Below are positions 1 to 6,888 of a DNA stretch of 6,888 nucleotides, piece after piece (the stretch's first letter is position 1; each line of letters starts with the position of its first letter). Made by a program: the position numbers and the translations under genes. Source of the stretch: a virus (Duplodnaviria; Heunggongvirae; Uroviricota; Caudoviricetes); IMG/VR virus record IMGVR_UViG_2802429219_000013; one strand, written 5' to 3'. The notes under the pieces were generated by a model, which worked only from the letters and a program-made list of their open reading frames with translations, did no database searches and had not been told where the DNA came from.

Positions 1-93
1 GACTGGTTGCGCGAAGTGATCGTGAAGCTTAATGACTGGCCGTCAAACCGTGTGCATGAACTGCTGCCCTGGAACTGCTCAACTGTAAAATAA
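1..93 (+). CDS. Possible 3' end of an ORF truncated by the window start (product unknown)
   Basis: Frame 1 is open from position 1 to TAA at 91-93 (...DWLREVIVKLNDWPSNRVHELLPWNCSTVK*). Only 30 codons, so an open frame by chance is quite possible; no start or RBS visible. Convergent with ssb. Confidence 0.25.
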   Translation, partial: DWLREVIVKLNDWPSNRVHELLPWNCSTVK

Positions 94-219
94 TCCTTAC
101 GCTACGTACTTCTCGGGGCGCTTACGCCAGTACCGCCTTTCGTGCATTCATCTTAAATGTCCTTTTACTGCGAAAATGGACATTAGTATCGGAAACAGGA
201 AAGGGAGGCGAAAGACGGT

Positions 220-342
220 TTAAATGATGCGCTTACCTTTATGCGCCGATGTGGTTTTATCCTGCTGCTGTATCGCCTGCGTCGTTTTCTGCAGCGTGCC
301 GTAAATGCCTTTCGGTTTTCGGTTAATGGTCAGCTTTGTCAT
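220..342 (-). CDS. Hypothetical small basic protein (40 aa)
   Basis: ATG at 342 (minus strand) preceded by AGGGGAAAG with ~4 nt spacing; ORF MTKLTINRKPKGIYGTLQKTTQAIQQQDKTTSAHKGKRII ends with TAA at 220-222. Lies 36 nt downstream of the ssb stop, same strand. Below the ORF-track length cutoff; no recognisable family. Confidence 0.3.
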   Translation of the reverse strand: MTKLTINRKPKGIYGTLQKTTQAIQQQDKTTSAHKGKRII

Positions 343-378
343 GCTTTCCCCTGTAATAACTCTGTTCGCTGTTGTGAA

Positions 379-801
379 TTAAAACGGTATGTTGTCCCCG
401 TACGGATCATCATTACCCGCCTGTTGTTTTGCCCTGTTCAGCGCGTCAGTAGCCTGGCCCTGTTGACCTTTTTTGCCGCCCGGTCGCGCCGTTCGCGCAC
501 TGATTACGCTGTCTGCGATGACCTGCCAGCCCTGCCGCGTTTCGCCGTTCTGGCCTGTCCACTGGCTTACCTGCATGTTACCCGCCACGCTCACCAGTTC
601 GCCTTTCTGGTGCTTTGCCAGTGCGTCGGCCTGTCTGCCAAACGCCAGGACGGATAACCACATCGTCGCCGTTCCGTCATCTGCCTGGCTGCACGGCAGG
701 GGAACCGCCATACTCGCCATCGCCATTTGTGTCCCCTTGCTGGTGGTCTTTAACTGCGGGTCAGCCACCAGCCGCCCGTAAGCCGCTATCTGTGCTGTCA
801 T
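379..801 (-). CDS. ssb: Single-stranded DNA-binding protein (SSB, OB-fold) with C-terminal ...GDNIPF tip
   Basis: 140-aa ORF. ATG at 801 preceded by GGAGAG about 9 nt upstream. The N-terminal two thirds follow the SSB OB-fold pattern (YGRLVADPQLKTT..., LSVLAFGRQADALAKHQKGELVSVAGNMQVSQWTGQNGETRQGWQVIADSV), followed by a Gly/Gln-rich linker and an acidic C-terminus ending IPF, as in E. coli SSB (DDDIPF). Confidence 0.85.
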   Translation of the reverse strand: MTAQIAAYGRLVADPQLKTTSKGTQMAMASMAVPLPCSQADDGTATMWLSVLAFGRQADALAKHQKGELVSVAGNMQVSQWTGQNGETRQGWQVIADSVISARTARPGGKKGQQGQATDALNRAKQQAGNDDPYGDNIPF

Positions 802-864
802 GCTGTCTGCTCTCCGGTTTTAACGTTGATAGTTACGCTTGTTTACACCCTTACTGTGAAATTC

Positions 865-939
865 TGCGGGTTATAATCGCACTTTTGCGGGTTATAACTG
901 CCGTTTTGCGGGTTATTTTGGGTATTTTGCGGGTTACGA
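865..939 (+). repeat. Four direct iterons (TGCGGGTTAyna) at exact 21-bp spacing
   Basis: TGCGGGTTATAA at 865-876 and 886-897, TGCGGGTTATTT at 907-918, TGCGGGTTACGA at 928-939; each preceded by a short T run. The 21-bp period is two helical turns, so all copies lie on the same face of the DNA. Confidence 0.75.
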
Positions 940-978
940 TTTTCCTGTCATTCCTTTAATAATCATATGGATACTGAT

Positions 979-987
979 TTATCCACA
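979..987 (+). promoter_or_regulatory. Consensus DnaA box (TTATCCACA)
   Basis: Exact 9/9 match to the E. coli DnaA box consensus, located inside the AT-rich spacer between the direct and inverted iterons. Confidence 0.5.
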
Positions 988-990
988 GAA

Positions 991-1009
991 ATAACCCGCA
1001 TAACCCGCA
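991..1009 (-). repeat. Two inverted copies of the iteron core (ATAACCCGCA = reverse complement of TGCGGGTTAT)
   Basis: ATAACCCGCA at 991-1000 and again at 1000-1009 (9-bp offset, sharing one base), opposite in orientation to the four direct iterons. Confidence 0.7.
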
Positions 1010-1037
1010 AAATTTTCACCCTACACGCGAGAAAAAA

Positions 1038-3161
1038 TTAATCTTCTTCGCTTTCAGGCTGGAACATCAGCACGTAAAAAACATGCTGCTTCCCCCCAAT
1101 CCTGCCGAGCGCCTTTTTCTTGTAACGGCGATCGTTACCCGCTTCCAGCATTCCGGCAGCACTCAACGCGCGGGCAAAGTGAGACGGATTAAATCCCTGT
1201 GCTATCTCACCCTCAAATACATGCGGGAACGTGTAAAAACGGAACTCGTCATCTTCGTTTCTGATACTCCCCTTTCTGTATCCGGCAAGCTCTTTAATCG
1301 GTAAATCACGCTCGTCGGTGTTGGGCCACGGAAGGTATCTGCTGAATCCAAACGACGCTAAAAAAGCCTCTGCCTGTTCAACCATCTGTTTAAACTCCCT
1401 GTTACCCGTGCCGAATTCCTTCACCCAGGCATTAAAATTATGCTGAATGGCATCGCGGCACGCCTGAACATCCCAACCAGTAATATGGACGGAAAGCACC
1501 AGCGCCGACTCCAGCATGGCGAATCGTTCCCCCACACGGTGAACCTGTTCGCCGTAGCTCTCCGGTATCAGGTTGCGCCACCGTTCACGGCATGCCCTTA
1601 CCGTGTCCTTTGCCTCCTGCTGGTGGTCTGCCAGCCATTTAACCCACTCACGCCCAGCCGCCCCGTGATTTTCTGTCCAGGCATCTTTTAACGCGTCTGC
1701 GTGCGCCTTTCCGGTGCTGTATTCGTGAAATTGCGTGGCTTTTTCCATCGGAACGTTAAGCAGGCGGACAAGCTGCCCCGCTTTGACTTTTATCCCCTCC
1801 GTTTTGAGGAATGTTTCAACGTCCATTTCTCCGGTACTGATTGCCACCGTTCGCCAGTGTTTGATCTCCCGGTTGCCGCCGTCCTTCGCTCCCTGTAATT
1901 TCCCGGAACCGTTAAACAGCGTATAAGCCGATGTGGACACCTCCCGCGCGTTTCCGGCCTGACCTATTTCATCCAGGGGTAATAGCCCGTCATTGTGCGC
2001 CTCTGCCTCGTTGGCGATACCTAACGCCGTGCCGTACCAGGTCAGCCGTTGTGCGTCCGGCTCTCCCCATAAACTGGATGCGATGTTCTGCGTTGTGGTC
2101 TTACCTGCCGATGACTGTTCGAAAAGATGTACCCCGAAGCCGTCAGCACCCACCAGCCCGATTAATGGTGCGGATAACGATACCGCCACACCCAGCATCA
2201 TGGACGGATTACCACCAGCCAGTCGCGCCACGGTATCGCGCCAGCCATCCGCCGTTCCTGCCACGGAATAGCCATTAACGGCAGCCGTTTTTCCGGTAAA
2301 CAGGATCGGTTTTTCAGACTCACCAATGACTGAACCGTCCGGCATGATGTACGCACCAAAATGCCAGCCCGTTGTTGTGCTTAACTGCCATTCCTCATGG
2401 TTTCCGCTTAACTGCATCCAGTCAGCCAGGATAGCCCTGTATTTGCCGTTGGTTGTCACATTCAGTCCGTGGTCTTTCAGCAGCCGCCAGCCGTCACGGT
2501 CGCCAATGCCACCGCACGGAACCGCCATTGTGATGACTTCGTGGTTTGCAGGTTTCTTCCAGCGCATCACGCGGTAATGCTCTTTGCCGATTGTCCCCGT
2601 TCCCAGTAGTTCAAGCGGGGAGCATAACCACGTCTCAGGCCGGATAATTTCGCCTGACTGCTTGTCAACTTTGGGCGTTACCCAGAAAACACCATCGGCG
2701 CGACTTTCAACGCGGGGCTTTAATTCATCATCGCCCTGGCTTTCTGTGATTTTTTTCTTTAAGGGCAACACCAGACTTTCCCCGCGCTCGTATTCGTCTT
2801 TCAGTCGGGCAAGCTGTGGTGTCCAGTCCTCCAGTAAATCGCCGTTCTCGTCACAAAAACAGGCTTCCTTAACACCAGCCGCTGCCAGCAGGGTTTCAAT
2901 CTGTAGCGCCAGTTTGTCATCCAGTTTTCCGGCACGTCTGACGATGGCGCGTGACCGACCATCATCCACAATACGCAGGTTTTCCAGATTACCCAGGTCA
3001 CGCCGTCCGAGATAAACAGGTGGTATTTTGTCGCCGCGCTTTCTGGCTTCTCCGCCCTGCATGTAATGCTCTGCGTGGCTGTATGCGTCATCCCCCGCAA
3101 AAATCACTGCATCCTCGCCTTTATCTTTCGGTAACAGTTTTACGTTCGGTGCCAGTTTCAT
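1038..3161 (-). CDS. Primase/helicase-like replication initiation protein (P4 alpha-like / DUF927-type, assignment from memory) with P-loop-like SAGKTT motif
   Basis: 707-aa ORF, by far the longest in the window. Start ATG at 3161 overlaps the upstream ORF's stop (ATGA) and is preceded by GGGGAAAGG. Contains a P-loop-like motif FEQSSAGKTTTQ near aa 350. Position between the regulatory module and an iteron origin matches replication proteins of int-alpA-pri type satellites. Family call not verified by search. Confidence 0.9.
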   Translation of the reverse strand: MKLAPNVKLLPKDKGEDAVIFAGDDAYSHAEHYMQGGEARKRGDKIPPVYLGRRDLGNLENLRIVDDGRSRAIVRRAGKLDDKLALQIETLLAAAGVKEACFCDENGDLLEDWTPQLARLKDEYERGESLVLPLKKKITESQGDDELKPRVESRADGVFWVTPKVDKQSGEIIRPETWLCSPLELLGTGTIGKEHYRVMRWKKPANHEVITMAVPCGGIGDRDGWRLLKDHGLNVTTNGKYRAILADWMQLSGNHEEWQLSTTTGWHFGAYIMPDGSVIGESEKPILFTGKTAAVNGYSVAGTADGWRDTVARLAGGNPSMMLGVAVSLSAPLIGLVGADGFGVHLFEQSSAGKTTTQNIASSLWGEPDAQRLTWYGTALGIANEAEAHNDGLLPLDEIGQAGNAREVSTSAYTLFNGSGKLQGAKDGGNREIKHWRTVAISTGEMDVETFLKTEGIKVKAGQLVRLLNVPMEKATQFHEYSTGKAHADALKDAWTENHGAAGREWVKWLADHQQEAKDTVRACRERWRNLIPESYGEQVHRVGERFAMLESALVLSVHITGWDVQACRDAIQHNFNAWVKEFGTGNREFKQMVEQAEAFLASFGFSRYLPWPNTDERDLPIKELAGYRKGSIRNEDDEFRFYTFPHVFEGEIAQGFNPSHFARALSAAGMLEAGNDRRYKKKALGRIGGKQHVFYVLMFQPESEED

Positions 3162-3472
3162 TTTGCCTTTCCCCGTTCACGAATAATTTCACGTACTGCC
3201 TTAATGCGTTCCATACCTGTAACGCGCATGATTCTGTCGATGTCGCTTAAGTCCGCTGGTGGTGCTTTGCTTACCAGGGTGAATTCCCTTTCAAAGCGCA
3301 TAAGTGACGACACGCAGGGATGCGCATAACCTTCGCGGATATAGGTCACGCGAAAATCATCGACGGTTTTAATCGTTATCGTGCTGCCGTATTTATCCCG
3401 GAAAATATCGCCGGGGCGGATTTCAGGCCGAGCGGGGCCGCTGGCAGTAAAGCCAGAAATTTTCTGTTTCAT
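3158..3472 (-). CDS. Hypothetical protein (104 aa), translationally coupled to the primase gene
   Basis: ORF MKQKISGF...RERGKAK; its TGA stop overlaps the primase ATG (ATGA, 3158-3161). Starts 5 nt after the stop of the upstream ORF. No family recognised. Confidence 0.7.
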   Translation of the reverse strand: MKQKISGFTASGPARPEIRPGDIFRDKYGSTITIKTVDDFRVTYIREGYAHPCVSSLMRFEREFTLVSKAPPADLSDIDRIMRVTGMERIKAVREIIRERGKAK

Positions 3473-3477
3473 GGTTT

Positions 3478-3705
3478 TTATTCCGCGTTTATTTTTTTAT
3501 CGTGAATTTCGATCGCTTTATTTAATTCGACGATTACCGTATCGAGTAATGAAATAAACGCACCAGCAAGGTTAGATTCACGTTCATCTTCCGGCGCATC
3601 ACTTAAACCATCAAGCCAGATAAGCAATATTTGCCGCAAACATTCACTGTTAGTCAGTGCATGTTCTGCATGGCTCATTGATTTAAAATAACGGTCATCA
3701 TGCAT
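3478..3705 (-). CDS. Hypothetical small protein (75 aa)
   Basis: The track ORF 3478-3750 was trimmed to the internal ATG at 3705, which is preceded by TCAGGGGG with 6 nt spacing and overlaps the upstream ORF's stop by 8 nt (ATGCATGA). Protein MHDDRYFKSMSHAEHALTNSECLRQILLIWLDGL... Confidence 0.55.
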   Translation of the reverse strand: MHDDRYFKSMSHAEHALTNSECLRQILLIWLDGLSDAPEDERESNLAGAFISLLDTVIVELNKAIEIHDKKINAE

Positions 3706-3934
3706 GGTGCGCCCCCTGAATATCTGCGGTAAGAATTTTGCCTGCCTCATTCAGTGCCATATCAGCGGTAAGCTGTGCGTATGCCAGTGAATGCGGGATT
3801 ATCGCCCCTGTATATTCCGGCTCTCTGGTAATGTGTTTTTCTGCGGTTGCTGCTGTGCATGAAATATCAATCAGCGCGTGCATTAGCGTTTTGATGGCTT
3901 CGGCGGCTGCGTCCGGACGGGTGTTATTGCACAT
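3698..3934 (-). CDS. Hypothetical small protein (78 aa)
   Basis: ATG at 3934 preceded by TATTCAGGGGG with 6 nt spacing; 11-nt overlap with the upstream ORF. C-terminus ...ADIQGAHHA is encoded by the reiterated junction element. Confidence 0.55.
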   Translation of the reverse strand: MCNNTRPDAAAEAIKTLMHALIDISCTAATAEKHITREPEYTGAIIPHSLAYAQLTADMALNEAGKILTADIQGAHHA

Positions 3935-4136
3935 GTCTCACCCCCTGAATATTCGCGTTAATCATTCCGGCACGCTCTGCGAGTTCCTGTAATGATTCCC
4001 TTGTTGCGACAATTGCTTCATCTGGCAGGTGGTAATTACACACCACGCGACCTTTATCCACATTGACCAGTAGCTGCCCGGTGAATTTCTCACGAAACTG
4101 AACGCGGTTAAGGTCGGTAAGTGACAGGTTAATCAT
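3924..4136 (-). CDS. Hypothetical small protein (70 aa)
   Basis: ATG at 4136 preceded by TCAGGGGG with 6 nt spacing; C-terminus ...ANIQGVRHVQ is encoded by the junction element. No family recognised. Confidence 0.55.
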   Translation of the reverse strand: MINLSLTDLNRVQFREKFTGQLLVNVDKGRVVCNYHLPDEAIVATRESLQELAERAGMINANIQGVRHVQ

Positions 4137-4332
4137 GGTGTACCCCCTGACGAATACGGGCGGCGAATACCATCACGCAGCCATCAGGAGATTGCTGGCG
4201 TGCTTCCTGTTCGCTGGTGGCCTCGATGTGAATCACGCGCGGTTGTGCGGTGCCCAGGGCGATAAAACGCCAGATGTATTTATTCAGGTTGTGCGAGTCC
4301 CGCCCTTGCGGGTGTGTGGTATGATTTAACAT
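4129..4332 (-). CDS. Hypothetical small protein (67 aa), first gene of the leftward operon
   Basis: Retained 3' part of the implausible 306-aa track ORF 4129-5049. The internal ATG at 4332 is preceded by GAGGT with ~4 nt spacing. C-terminus ...ARIRQGVHHD again comes from the junction element. The antisense + ORF 4135-4329 lacks an RBS. Confidence 0.45.
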   Translation of the reverse strand: MLNHTTHPQGRDSHNLNKYIWRFIALGTAQPRVIHIEATSEQEARQQSPDGCVMVFAARIRQGVHHD

Positions 4333-4428
4333 AGCTACCTCGATACTCTCGTTATCGTTGGTGGTTAGAAGCCCGTTGGTGTTGGTAGCGCCTGCGGGCT
4401 TTGTCTTTTCATCGATTACCTTAATAAA

Positions 4429-4510
4429 GGTGTCAGCCACTATACTAGTAATAGGTGTCAGCCACGTCAATAGTGTTTTTCCATTTTCTTGTGTGTATAC
4501 TGTCAGCCAC
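4429..4510. promoter_or_regulatory. Divergent promoter/operator region with three direct repeats of (G)GTGTCAGCCAC
   Basis: GGTGTCAGCCAC at 4429-4440 and 4454-4465, ACTGTCAGCCAC at 4499-4510. Two TATACT -10-like hexamers (4441-4446, 4496-4501) abut the repeats. A candidate leftward promoter on the minus strand has -35 TTGACG (rc of 4465-4470) and -10 TAGTAT (rc of 4442-4447) with a 17-nt spacer. The candidate rightward -10 at 4496-4501 overlaps repeat 3 and lies about 30 nt upstream of the RHH gene ATG. Confidence 0.5.
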
Positions 4511-4531
4511 CTAATAACAAGGGAATCAGAT

Positions 4532-4711
4532 ATGGCAACGAAAGCAGTTAATGGAAAATCAAAAAAACTTGAGGCACGAGTACCCCATGCAATAGCTGAC
4601 GCTGTAGAAAATTTAAAGGAAGAAGGCGAAAGCACTGGGCAATTTATCGTTTCGGCACTTGAAGGTGAGATCAAACGCCGCCAGCGGCGCAAGGCCAAAG
4701 AGCAGGAATAG
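4532..4711 (+). CDS. Small DNA-binding regulator, ribbon-helix-helix-like (59 aa); candidate repressor of the element
   Basis: ATG at 4532 preceded by AAGGGA about 8 nt upstream. MATKAVNGKSKKLEARVPHAIADAVENLKEEGESTGQFIVSALEGEIKRRQRRKAKEQE has a basic N-terminus, a short beta-strand-like KKLEARVP segment followed by two predicted helices, and a basic tail, consistent with an RHH (Arc/CopG/MetJ-like) fold. The track ORF 4358-4711 was trimmed because its 5' extension runs through the operators and promoters. Confidence 0.6.
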   Translation: MATKAVNGKSKKLEARVPHAIADAVENLKEEGESTGQFIVSALEGEIKRRQRRKAKEQE

Positions 4712-4808
4712 CCAACCAGCAAGCCAGCACACTGATCACATTGCCCACCAGCCGCAAATGTGGCATTGTTGGCGATGCGTTCAAGTTTGATTTGCCGTAA
4801 TACCCACT

Positions 4809-4840
4809 GGCGACCCTTTGCGGTCGCCTTTGTTTTGCTT
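4809..4840 (+). terminator. Rho-independent terminator (likely end of the RHH regulator transcript)
   Basis: Perfect 7-bp stem GGCGACC (4809-4815) / GGTCGCC (4822-4828) with a 6-nt loop, followed by TTTGTTTTGCTT. Confidence 0.55.
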
Positions 4841-4874
4841 GTTATCCGGCAATTGTGGCGCTTCGTCACACGGT

Positions 4875-4883
4875 TGATATAAT
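4875..4883 (+). promoter_or_regulatory. Candidate extended -10 promoter (TGaTATAAT)
   Basis: TG at 4875-4876, one base, then consensus TATAAT at 4878-4883. No good -35, which extended -10 promoters tolerate. Located between two + strand terminators. Confidence 0.35.
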
Positions 4884-4889
4884 TTCCCT

Positions 4890-4960
4890 GCACTGATCCA
4901 TTTTTTTCGCAGCAGGTTAATTGTTCAGAAAGGCGGCTCATTATCGGGGCCGCTTTTTTT
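4890..4960 (+). ncRNA. Candidate small RNA (~70 nt) between the extended -10 promoter and a strong intrinsic terminator
   Basis: Predicted start ~4890 (7 nt after the -10), end at the terminator 4933-4960. No ATG inside the predicted transcript (4890-4960). Purely a prediction from promoter plus terminator geometry. Confidence 0.3.
4933..4960 (+). terminator. Rho-independent terminator
   Basis: Stem GCGGCTC (4933-4939) / GGGCCGC (4947-4953), 7 bp including one G-U pair, with a 7-nt loop, followed by TTTTTTT (4954-4960). Confidence 0.65.
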
Positions 4961-5101
4961 ATGCCTGAAAAACACCAATTTTGTGGTTTTTCAGTTTCAC
5001 CAGGCCGAACGAAGCCCCGCCCCTGTACGGGCGCATATCCAGTATTCATGGTTAGATCTCTGTATTAGTGGATGGGTGGCGGCTGTGTGCCGCCAGCCTG
5101 A

Positions 5102-5290
5102 TTAGTGAACTGCCTCGCAGCTGTCTTTCCATGCCAGAACTTCGGATAAAGACCAGCCAACGGAACGACCGCCGAGCTTACGCCGTGATGGGAATTGTCC
5201 GGCTTTTTCCAGGCGGTACCGACATGAGCGGCTCAGGCCTGTAAGTTGCTGACATTCTTTTTCACGTATAAAGCGATCTGTGCTTAACAC
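5102..5290 (-). CDS. alpA: AlpA-family transcriptional regulator / excisionase-like DNA-binding protein
   Basis: 62-aa ORF; the segment QQLTGLSRSCRYRLEKAGQFPSRRKLGGRSVGWSLSEVLAWK fits the AlpA/phage winged-helix pattern (LTGLSRSTIYRL..G.FP.P.KLG.R.V.W...E...W). Start is GTG at 5290 preceded by AAGGGGGAA with ~4 nt spacing. Same orientation as and downstream of int, as in CP4-57-type elements. Confidence 0.85.
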   Translation of the reverse strand: MLSTDRFIREKECQQLTGLSRSCRYRLEKAGQFPSRRKLGGRSVGWSLSEVLAWKDSCEAVH

Positions 5291-5658
5291 AATTCCCCCT
5301 TTGTTGTTTCTTAAAGAGTCATTGGGTGGATTATTGGGTTGGGTTGTGTCGGATTGTGTCAGGGTGTTTATGGAATGGCAAACACTGGTGGCGGTTGTTT
5401 TACAGAAATGGGGGTAATGAGAATAAAAACTCTTTTAATTCATTGTGGTGCAAAGGCATAAAATTCTGTTTTTACGCATTTTTTACATGTTTTTAAGAGT
5501 GATTCGCCAATGTACAAAAAACCAGTAAAACGACTGAAAATCAACTTTTTAGGGTGTCAGTCAGATGATAATCAAGTTTGTTCCAGATTGTTCGCTGTTG
5601 TTCGTCGTGGTGTCTCGTTGTTTCACGTTGTTTCCGTTCTAAAAAATCGCGAAAAAAA

Positions 5659-6888
5659 TTATATTTCTCTGGCTATTGGCAGTGTGGTTACGTTTTCGTG
5701 AGCACCTGCCAGTATCTCTAATCGCTCTGTCCATATGTCCAACGCACTACGTTTCGCATCGAGATAACGGGAGTGGTTATAGACTCGTTGCATCCCTGGC
5801 ATCTGGTGAGCGGTGAGTTGTTCGACAATATGCGGATCCACGCCTAAATCGTTCAGCATCGTGGTAAACGTGCGCCGTATATCGTGTAGTGACCAGTGCG
5901 GATGGTTTAATTTTTTGTGTGTGAATCTGCCGTATTGCGACACGCTGGCTTCCTGTTTCAGCTCCCCGAGTAATAGCCCTGTGTGTCGGTTCTGCTCCAC
6001 CAGCTGCGTGACGAACGGTAAAATGCTTTCCGGTATTGGCCTGAATATGGCGACCTTCGTTTTGCTGTGTTCTTTCGGTACCGTCCAGAGCATTTCCTTA
6101 AAATCCCACTCCTTGATCTCCGACAGCCTCAGCTCTCCGGTTCGGCAGCCGAACACAATCAGGAGGCGGATTAGTGCGCTGTAGTAGGGTGGGAATATTT
6201 TTTTATCCAGCGCCTGTAATAATTCGCCCAGTTCTTTGTTACTAAGCACGCGTTCGCTTATGCCGGGCTTTTTGCCAACGTCCACTACGTTGAGATCATC
6301 CAGAACGTTACTGACTGCGTAGCGACGTTTACGGCAGAACTTAAGCGCCTGTTTACACGCCTGCATCATGTGACCAGACGTTACAGGGGATTTTTTGCGT
6401 ATCCGGTCAAAACAGGCCAGCCAGTGACGTAACTCGCATTTATCCAGTGGCATGTTACCGATGTGCTGTATGACGTGATTATTAAGGCGGCTTTTCAGGG
6501 AGATGTAATCGACGCGGTTTTCCTTTACGTGCATTTCCAGCCAGTAGCTGATCGCATCGCCCACCGTTACCGGCTTTAGTGCTTCCTGTATGGAGTAATT
6601 AAGCTCATGGCGTGGATTTTTTCCCTCTGCCAGCCATGCGCGACACTGTGCTGCTTTTTCCCTAGCTGCTTTCAGGCTCAGATCTGGATAATTTCCCAGT
6701 TTCAGGCGTTCCGGTGATACCTGGCGTCCTGTTCCTGCCCTGTAGGTGAAATACCAGGTTAATAGGCCGCTGGTGGAGTGTCTGATACTCAGATTTCCAC
6801 CGTCATTAAGAAAGGTGGTTTTTTGGGCTGGTGTGCCGTTGATTTTTCTTAGCTGCGTGTCGCTCAGTTTGTTAAGTGCCCTGCTCAT
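5659..6888 (-). CDS. int: Tyrosine site-specific integrase (P4-type)
   Basis: 409-aa ORF with the tyrosine recombinase catalytic signature in the C-terminal half: R in VFGCRTGELRLSE, HxxR in LHDIRRTF, and the downstream tyrosine region QRVYNHSRYLDAKRS. ATG is at the last bases of the window (6886-6888), so upstream sequence and the att/tRNA side are not visible. Confidence 0.95.
   Translation of the reverse strand: MSRALNKLSDTQLRKINGTPAQKTTFLNDGGNLSIRHSTSGLLTWYFTYRAGTGRQVSPERLKLGNYPDLSLKAAREKAAQCRAWLAEGKNPRHELNYSIQEALKPVTVGDAISYWLEMHVKENRVDYISLKSRLNNHVIQHIGNMPLDKCELRHWLACFDRIRKKSPVTSGHMMQACKQALKFCRKRRYAVSNVLDDLNVVDVGKKPGISERVLSNKELGELLQALDKKIFPPYYSALIRLLIVFGCRTGELRLSEIKEWDFKEMLWTVPKEHSKTKVAIFRPIPESILPFVTQLVEQNRHTGLLLGELKQEASVSQYGRFTHKKLNHPHWSLHDIRRTFTTMLNDLGVDPHIVEQLTAHQMPGMQRVYNHSRYLDAKRSALDIWTERLEILAGAHENVTTLPIAREI

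Follow-up and report, generated by a model that had tools for sequence, protein, structure and literature searches.

A candidate ribbon-helix-helix repressor in the integration, regulation and replication half of a probable Gram-negative phage-inducible chromosomal island in yifB/comM

The virus record IMGVR_UViG_2802429219_000013 (Caudoviricetes) is a stretch of 6,888 bp, here called the window, which forms the last 6.9 kb of its parent contig PTSA01000020.1 (GCA_002965785.1). All real genes of the window lie on the minus strand except one, a small gene for a ribbon-helix-helix (RHH) protein of the YlcI/YnfO family (Table 1). Followed in the direction of transcription, it runs from the integrase gene int and alpA through a 390-bp noncoding slot, the reversed RHH gene and a 200-bp divergent control region into an operon that begins with an icd-like gene and ends with rep, and from there through 236 bp of intergenic repeats to ssb, the gene for a single-stranded DNA-binding protein (SSB). 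A first-pass annotation made from the sequence had listed an integrase, AlpA, an RHH regulator, a small-ORF (open reading frame) operon, an iteron origin and an ssb gene in this order, and family matches and repeat counts bear out each of these parts; its view that the element fills the whole window has to be trimmed by bases 1-236, which belong to an insertion sequence (IS) of the IS66 family. Sequence comparison makes it very probable that the element is a Gram-negative phage-inducible chromosomal island (PICI) of the EcCICFT073/EcCIEDL933 kind, integrated in yifB/comM, and that the window holds its half for integration, regulation and replication. The element itself is a fresh copy of an already described, common E. 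coli satellite type whose prototype has been studied since 2018, and the one fresh point it offers is strong sequence evidence for the reversed small RHH gene as a putative repressor.

Table 1. Features of the window, ordered by position
Feature	Position	Strand	Basis or remarks
IS66-family sequence, outside the satellite	1-236	+	tnpC 3' end to ~127, then a further IS66-like piece
ProQ/FinO-family gene, first 35 codons, IS-truncated	237-342	-	identical to first 35 aa of the A36 (L001) protein
ssb, 140 aa	379-801	-	PF00436, E=3.9e-16; TIGR00621, E=1e-16; 71% identical to EcCICFT073 SSB
Four direct iterons (TTTTGCGGGTTAT), 21 bp spacing	862-937	+	repeat count
A+T-rich spacer, 70% A+T, 53 bp, presumed melting site	938-990	.	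between iteron sets
Two inverted iterons	991-1009	-	9 bp apart
Rep, 707 aa, DUF927, SaPIbov1 Rep/SCCmec Cch family, initiator-helicase	1038-3161	-	sequence and fold similarity
DUF4222 protein	3158-3472	-	PF13973, E=4.9e-20; stop overlaps rep start by 4 nt
Small ORF, 75 aa	3478-3705	-	phrog_2196, E=8e-23
Small ORF, 78 aa	3698-3934	-	phrog_5146, E=5e-31
Small ORF, 70 aa	3924-4136	-	phrog_340, E=6e-23
Icd-like protein, 67 aa, first operon gene	4129-4332	-	NF033153, E=9e-19; ATG, GAGG 5 nt upstream
Predicted operator O1 (GGTGTCAGCCAC)	4429-4440	+	GGTG-TCAGC-CAC; over -10/start region of operon promoter
Promoter-like site for icd-to-rep operon, TTGACG-17 nt-TAGTAT	4442-4470	-	sole good operon promoter
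Predicted operator O2 (GGTGTCAGCCAC)	4454-4465	+	GGTG-TCAGC-CAC; in promoter spacer beside -35
Predicted operator O3 (ACTGTCAGCCACC)	4499-4511	+	ACTG-TCAGC-CACC; fused to conserved TATACT upstream of RHH gene
YlcI/YnfO-family RHH protein, 59 aa, candidate repressor	4532-4711	+	NF041551, E=2e-16
Noncoding variable slot between RHH gene and alpA	4712-5101	.	+ strand terminator hairpins 4809-4828, ~4933-4960
alpA, 62 aa	5102-5290	-	PF05930, E=3e-18; 100% identical to EcCICFT073 AlpA
Promoter-like site upstream of alpA, TTGCCA-17 nt-CACAAT with TG	5353-5381	-	consensus match only
Tyrosine integrase int, 409 aa	5659-6888	-	Arm-DNA-bind_3 and Phage_integrase (arm-binding and catalytic domains)

Beyond int the parent contig continues into a 5' fragment of yifB/comM and then the ilv operon, and about 175 bp past the window end, beside int, it carries the attachment (att) core ATCCGCTATT(G/T)ATAAT. 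In the A36 relative, which is 97% identical across 87% of the window, this 16-bp repeat flanks a 14-kb island at both ends, between the two halves of yifB, and of 5426 complete E. coli genomes, 5396 contain a reconstructed uninterrupted yifB junction, one of them at 100% identity. Given the att repeats and a yifB site that is empty in 99% of genomes, the insertion is one that varies between strains. The att site had been expected at a tRNA 3' end; the core lies inside yifB/comM instead, and a tRNA scan of the window detects no tRNA. Adjacent capsid or tail genes, or a locus without att repeats and without presence and absence among strains, had been named beforehand as signs that would tell against a satellite: the complete A36 island carries no annotated capsid, portal, tail or lysis gene, and both the repeats and the empty sites are there. 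The integrase and the matches to PHROG phage families would suit an internal fragment of a full-size prophage, and the locus could in principle be a conserved chromosomal one, but the att-bounded island of A36, the mostly empty site, the lack of any annotated tail or lysis gene in close relatives and the absence of a similar phage (no real match among 50,697 phage records, with one weak partial match to a Klebsiella phage) reduce either possibility to practically nothing. A closely related integrase occurs in another strain at a look-alike core, TCACGATATT(T/A)ATAAT, between smrA and abgR. A tandem TTAACTACACC pair (AATTAACTACACCATTAACTACACCG) stands just inside both ends of the A36 island (L001, 7988-8013 and 21830-21855); the same 26-mer recurs at 9267 and 23379 of the relative L002 and about 20 bp past the window's int end in the extended locus (L003). 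The pair occurs at two different chromosomal sites. These pairs are probably arm-type binding sites of the integrase. Between int and alpA, at 5600-5640, there is a tandem pair of GAAACAACG at a distance of 11 bp and then more words of the AACAA type, which may be a binding region for AlpA or Int; the count of GAACAAY repeats near int and alpA is not above chance.

The placement of int and alpA, co-oriented and adjoining at one end of the element, is the one used to define Gram-negative PICIs (PMC6092414). The size expected of such islands, about 10-15 kb without tail or lysis genes, is seen in the 14-kb A36 relative, the window holding only one half of its own copy. SatelliteFinder calls a PICI from at least four of integrase, regulator (alpA), primase-replicase, capsid-morphogenesis gene and small terminase (PMC10085698); the window has three of these components, with no capsid, protease, portal, connector or terminase gene within it, and the A36 relative adds a frameshifted Nu1-type terS. 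Elements of this type are common, in that the replication module is matched in 1292 and the switch region in 1370 of the 5426 complete E. coli genomes, roughly a quarter.

What weighs against assigning the window to a PICI is that the late half of this copy lies outside it and that the copy is damaged, at least in part, by the IS66 insertion. Base 1 is the end of the parent contig, relatives align from base 237 only, bases 1-236 are absent from all of them, and the terminal motif CGCTTAC of the IS66-family stretch occurs at 121-127 and 231-237; the insertion probably broke the assembly at base 1. The gene it truncates encodes in A36 a ProQ/FinO protein of 174 aa (PF04352, E=2.6e-25), which is followed in that island by two PerC genes, a K88-type fimbrial subunit and the frameshifted λ Nu1-type small terminase; the fimbrial subunit gene and the two PerC-family regulators of this late region (L001, 11070-11855) are virulence-type cargo. 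With the ProQ/FinO gene interrupted at base 237, the assembly broken and terS frameshifted in the closest complete relative, the window could also be read as a decayed, immobile remnant whose genes remain readable while its cycle can no longer be completed. We regard this as somewhat unlikely, although with a real chance of being right: none of the ten window genes is broken, each having a start codon, and their junctions overlap; operators and iterons are repeated perfectly; and ProQ/FinO is not known to be a core function.

The PICI assignment leads to the regulatory center of the island. In the monomer model the RHH protein has a β-strand and two helices with a G-x-S/T turn, the arrangement expected of a ribbon-helix-helix fold, and between its gene and the icd-like gene there are three exact copies of GTGGCTGACA, compared with 0.01 expected, which lie in the predicted operators O1 to O3. 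The TTGAC beside O2 is conserved across genera. We surveyed RHH homologues in one genome per species and obtained 77 loci from more than 25 Enterobacterales genera, most of which carry int and alpA on one side and, divergently on the other, an icd-like gene or a replicase. An operator frame was counted where TG-N5-CA stood at -31 from the start codon together with at least one site at -76 or about -100 with the same center (at most one mismatch); this frame is present in 69 of 76 loci, as opposed to 0.03 in shuffled sequences. Its flanks, GGTG and CACC, are constant, and the 5-bp center falls into 21 classes that follow the β-strand of the RHH protein: KKLEARV goes with TCAGC, QALKARV with TGGCC, QMTTVRI with AAATA, LQVSVRL with AACAC and QQLNARF with AATCG. 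Pairs of loci from different genera have the same center in 135 of 162 cases when they share the β-strand (27 differ) and in only 55 of 1915 when they do not (1860 differ), these 55 being mostly conservative variants. The residues most informative about the operator center are 14 and 12, which hhalign places opposite N11 and Q9 of Arc, residues that we take to contact bases.

It is important to note that the RHH gene adjoins the operators, so that shared descent inflates this covariation; the argument therefore rests on the three sites, which change together within each locus, and on recombinant cases. In L002 and EcCICFT073, AlpA is 98-100% and Icd 91-95% identical to the window proteins, but the RHH protein is only 66% identical and the center is TGGCC; in Xenorhabdus loci, conversely, AlpA is only 44-47% identical and Icd has no match, yet both the β-strand and the center, TCAGC, are those of the window. 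These loci rule out AlpA and Icd as the binder of the predicted operators.

Several further points weigh against a repressor role for the RHH protein. Foldseek and a PDB profile search yield no significant RHH match for the 59-aa protein, hhalign P-values to RHH profiles are only about 0.002, the gene's own promoter has a good -10 element only, and the published island model names AlpA as activator and needs no repressor (PMC6092414). Since the published model does with AlpA and the fold comes from a monomer model and weak profile scores, another factor might bind the GGTG-N5-CAC sites, or the RHH protein might have a different role, for instance as a partner of the Icd-like protein, with the operon not repressed. 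This is unlikely in our view, because the center tracks the RHH β-strand and not AlpA or Icd in the recombinant loci, the residues that track it best are the predicted base-contacting ones, and a position over -35, -10 and start regions is typical for repressor sites. We consider it most likely that the RHH protein binds the three predicted operators; from their placement, it would repress the replication operon together with its own gene. The existence of a repressor in Gram-negative PICIs has been called "unclear" (PMC6092414), and in full-text searches of an incomplete literature no paper turned up that connects PICI control with an RHH protein. More broadly, we tentatively propose, as a reading that falls slightly short of an even chance, that in EcCICFT073-type PICIs, capsid-forming PICIs (cf-PICIs) and related int-alpA islands of Enterobacterales the early/replication operon is kept repressed in the resting state by the RHH protein, with a recognition code of about 20 classes formed by β-strand residues 12 and 14 together with the 5-bp operator center. 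The likeness to a repressor/operon arrangement of Staphylococcus aureus pathogenicity islands (SaPIs), suggested at first reading, thereby gains support from the covariation of operator and protein. The locus tag of the RHH gene in CFT073 is a late addition.

On the other side of the RHH gene lies alpA, whose product is an activator switched on by the helper phage and required for induction and transfer (PMC6092414, PMC11773190). The slot between the two convergent genes folds better than shuffled sequences (z=-3.0), and both of its terminators act on the plus strand, after the RHH gene. Relatives carry an AntA/AntB antirepressor gene and a small plus-strand gene at this position; the slot is a cargo site ("Bro zone") that is empty in the window copy. 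No convincing minus-strand terminator was found between alpA and the operon, which makes read-through from the alpA promoter one option. Within the RHH gene, at 4570-4587, the minus strand has a hairpin resembling a terminator, which we consider incidental because codons K11-K12 account for its T-run.

The genes of the operon, from the icd-like gene to rep, are packed at junctions of -8, -11, -8, +5 and -4 nt (overlaps of 4-11 nt and one 5-nt gap). For the Icd-like protein, the DUF4222 protein and the three small-ORF products of 70, 78 and 75 aa, the sole matches are to phage families of unknown function, and PADLOC assigned none of nine proteins to a defence family. The stretch at about 3530-4130 is mosaic among close relatives. 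Several candidate reading frames were discarded. A 306-aa ORF (4129-5049), of which only the last 67 codons, the icd-like gene, are real, and the many plus-strand ORFs inside rep overlap real genes and lack a family match. A longer Icd-like protein beginning with GTG at 4440 was also discarded, since this codon is positioned at the predicted transcription start or upstream of it. The 105-nt leader between that start and the Icd-like ATG contains a GC-rich hairpin (GCCCGCAGG...CGGGC) at 4345-4400, and a longer hairpin of different bases occupies the same leader position in L002, the cf-PICI-type element of O157:H7 (L005) and EcCICFT073; the hairpin may be an attenuator or a stability element.

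The last gene of the operon encodes a replicase whose sole Pfam match is DUF927. Rep resembles SaPIbov1 Rep (8TCH; phmmer E=8e-14, Foldseek E=3e-8) and SCCmec Cch (5DGK; E=1e-3 by sequence, Foldseek E=2e-8), and 28 Rep homologues show no variation in either Walker A (G353-K354-T355) or Walker B (D397-E398). Its C terminus, modeled with low confidence, has a weak match (E=0.006) to HTH_56, the C-terminal helix-turn-helix (HTH) domain of Cch, and residues 1-128 form a confidently modeled α/β domain. The N-terminal 150-160 or so residues (window 2680-3161) are 41% identical to the EcCICFT073 replicase (L084, 14242-14730), of which they are the only related part, the core of that protein being a different helicase type (D5_N/DUF5906/Pox_D5). 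In both islands the rep gene is preceded by a DUF4222 gene. For the 707-aa protein, searches of Pfam, NCBIfam and PDB gave no match to a primase family, the best Foldseek match to a primase has E=0.8, and D44 is the only acidic residue of the N-terminal domain that is invariant among the 28 aligned homologues; the label "primase" has accordingly been replaced with helicase-initiator of the Rep/Cch family. A partner-binding or cryptic priming role of the N-terminal domain is possible, and, as a point against the assignment, this confident domain could be a divergent primase.

The iteron origin begins 29 bp past the rep stop. It comprises six copies of TGCGGGTTAT, four direct ones at exact 21-bp spacing (865-937) and two inverted ones 9 bp apart (991-1009), where 0.41 copies are expected by chance and none of 200 shuffles reached six. 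The two sets enclose an A+T-rich stretch, the architecture of E. coli PICI origins and of SaPIs (PMC6092414), and a cloned pri-ori segment of EcCICFT073 replicates autonomously (PMC6092414). At 20 other loci, with Rep homologues of other genera among them, each Rep homologue has its own multi-copy word within 420 bp downstream, and the word changes as the Rep C terminus diverges, a pattern that fits cognate initiator-iteron pairs. Relative to A36, about 363 bp between ssb and the iterons are missing from the window (window 834-848 versus L001 15598-15975); in A36 this sequence codes for a hypothetical protein of 116 aa, a small gene is likewise present at this place in EcCICFT073 and the O157 element, and the short form of the window recurs in other E. 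coli genomes. At its far end, next to attL, the A36 island has a second, mirror-image origin architecture (L001, 8300-8455), in which three TGCGGGTTA copies at 9-bp distances are separated by A+T-rich sequence from three inverted copies about 21 bp apart, recalling ori/crr of P4.

It is here that a P4-like satellite, also envisaged in the first-pass annotation, has to be weighed. The window shares with P4 an integrase, a protein of the AlpA/Vis family, an Icd-like gene and, beside its origin, a replicase of helicase type, and the second iteron cluster of A36 recalls that of P4, but psu, delta, sid and epsilon are found neither in the window nor in the complete A36 relative, the replicase is DUF927/Cch-type and not P4 α, and alpA is co-oriented with the replication operon. 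A search of the window against all Rfam families at E up to 1 gave no match, and with it no C4, isrK or P4-CI-type immunity RNA. The satellite claim is supported on its PICI side, by a layout equal to that of EcCICFT073, att repeats and presence or absence among strains; P4-like membership is highly improbable.

Beyond the origin, the SSB combines its family domain with an acidic tip that ends in IPF (...DDPYGDNIPF), and the function of this tip is understood after E. coli SSB. In the cf-PICI-type element of O157:H7 (L005, 9916-10326) ssb is annotated with an internal stop; it may be dispensable there. SSB belongs to the "replication zone" of PICIs (PMC10111431), and both an ssb gene after the origin and a divergent RHH gene, at first thought less standard, are regular parts of EcCICFT073 and of the O157:H7 cf-PICI-type element.

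In light of these comparisons, we propose that the integrase holds the element at the ATCCGCTATT(G/T)ATAAT core, as the att repeats and empty sites show, and that in the resting state RHH dimers would sit on the three GGTG-TCAGC-CAC(C) operators, judging from their position and covariation. The promoter of the icd-like gene, the three small ORFs, the DUF4222 gene and rep would then be covered at its spacer and start by O1 and O2, and the -10 region of the RHH gene itself by O3. A helper phage would switch on alpA, whose product would activate the island cycle, as shown for the identical EcCICFT073 protein. The RHH block might be overcome if transcripts from the alpA promoter read through the RHH gene in antisense and on into the operon or, alternatively, by a Bro/Ant-type protein. 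Rep, as a self-loading helicase of the SaPI-Rep/Cch type, would bind the four plus two iterons and open the A+T-rich spacer, an expectation drawn from homology and from the iteron-Rep covariation, and the element's SSB would coat the single strands, with its ...NIPF tail possibly recruiting host replisome proteins, including the host primase. Priming by the host is probable because no primase domain is detectable in Rep. Packaging functions would be encoded beyond the window.

The comparison further illustrates how modular these islands are, with the same AlpA combined with a different replicase-origin pair, RHH/operator class and integration site. The proposed role of the RHH protein addresses an open point of Gram-negative PICI biology, namely how the island is silenced before the helper phage acts; if it is true, satellites of different specificity ("immunity") classes, of which there would be about 20, could share one cell without repressing each other, and the operator-protein code could offer a way of grouping satellites by compatibility and of building orthogonal small repressors.

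Among known systems, EcCICFT073 (NC_004431, 1377930-1388654) has the same gene order as the window, including the reversed YlcI/YnfO gene, the DUF4222-replicase pair, the iteron origin and SSB, with identities of 100% for AlpA, 95% for the Icd-like protein, 87% for Int and 71% for SSB. Its origin likewise consists of two iteron sets around an A+T-rich stretch (PMC6092414), although the iterons themselves differ. It departs from the window in its replicase (D5_N/DUF5906/Pox_D5 versus DUF927/Cch-type, with the first ~150 aa alone related at 41%), its RHH protein (66% identical, operator center TGGCC versus TCAGC) and its site, next to roxA/phoQ rather than in yifB. Its late region contains capsid, decoration and rppA genes; the window ends before that region.

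The element of O157:H7 SS TX 754-1, of EcCIEDL933 type by its published layout, is closer in its replicase and switch (Rep 82%, RHH 95%, AlpA 94%, Int 85% identical) and has the same iteron word and operator center, whereas it sits in tqsA and its Icd-like and DUF4222 proteins are only about 50% identical. An int-to-ssb module followed by capsid-to-terminase genes is the cf-PICI layout of EcCIEDL933 (bioRxiv 10.1101/2022.09.08.507074). Since an element with capsid, protease, portal, connector, terS and terL genes is headed by the same Rep allele and by closely similar RHH and AlpA proteins, and a region common to PICIs and cf-PICIs has been reported (PMC10085698), the window might be the left half of a cf-PICI with its own capsid, portal and terminase genes on a missing contig. 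What follows ssb makes this very unlikely: in the O157:H7 element ssb precedes perC and then capsid, protease, portal, connector, HNH, terS and terL genes, but in the window it is followed by the start of ProQ/FinO, as in the 94-97% identical islands of A36 and CFIAFB20190172, neither of which has an annotated capsid, protease, portal or connector gene.

With SaPIbov1 Rep (8TCH) and SCCmec Cch (5DGK), the window Rep shares similarity over residues ~210-600, the P-loop and an iteron origin directly 3' of the gene; it differs in its low identity (~14%), its extra N-terminal domain (1-128) and its Gram-negative host. The RHH protein of the PICI half described here recalls SaPI Stl and Rpr of Gram-positive PICIs in being a small regulator divergent from the replication operon with predicted operators over its promoter, but the Stl fold is helix-turn-helix and not RHH, and the RHH gene lies between alpA and the operon, not beside int; we regard the likeness as one of layout, an analogy that makes no claim of membership. 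Compared with the Arc/Mnt, CopG and ω repressors, to which its sequence similarity is marginal, the GGTG-N5-CACC frame and its roughly 20 predicted specificity classes appear particular to the YlcI/YnfO family.

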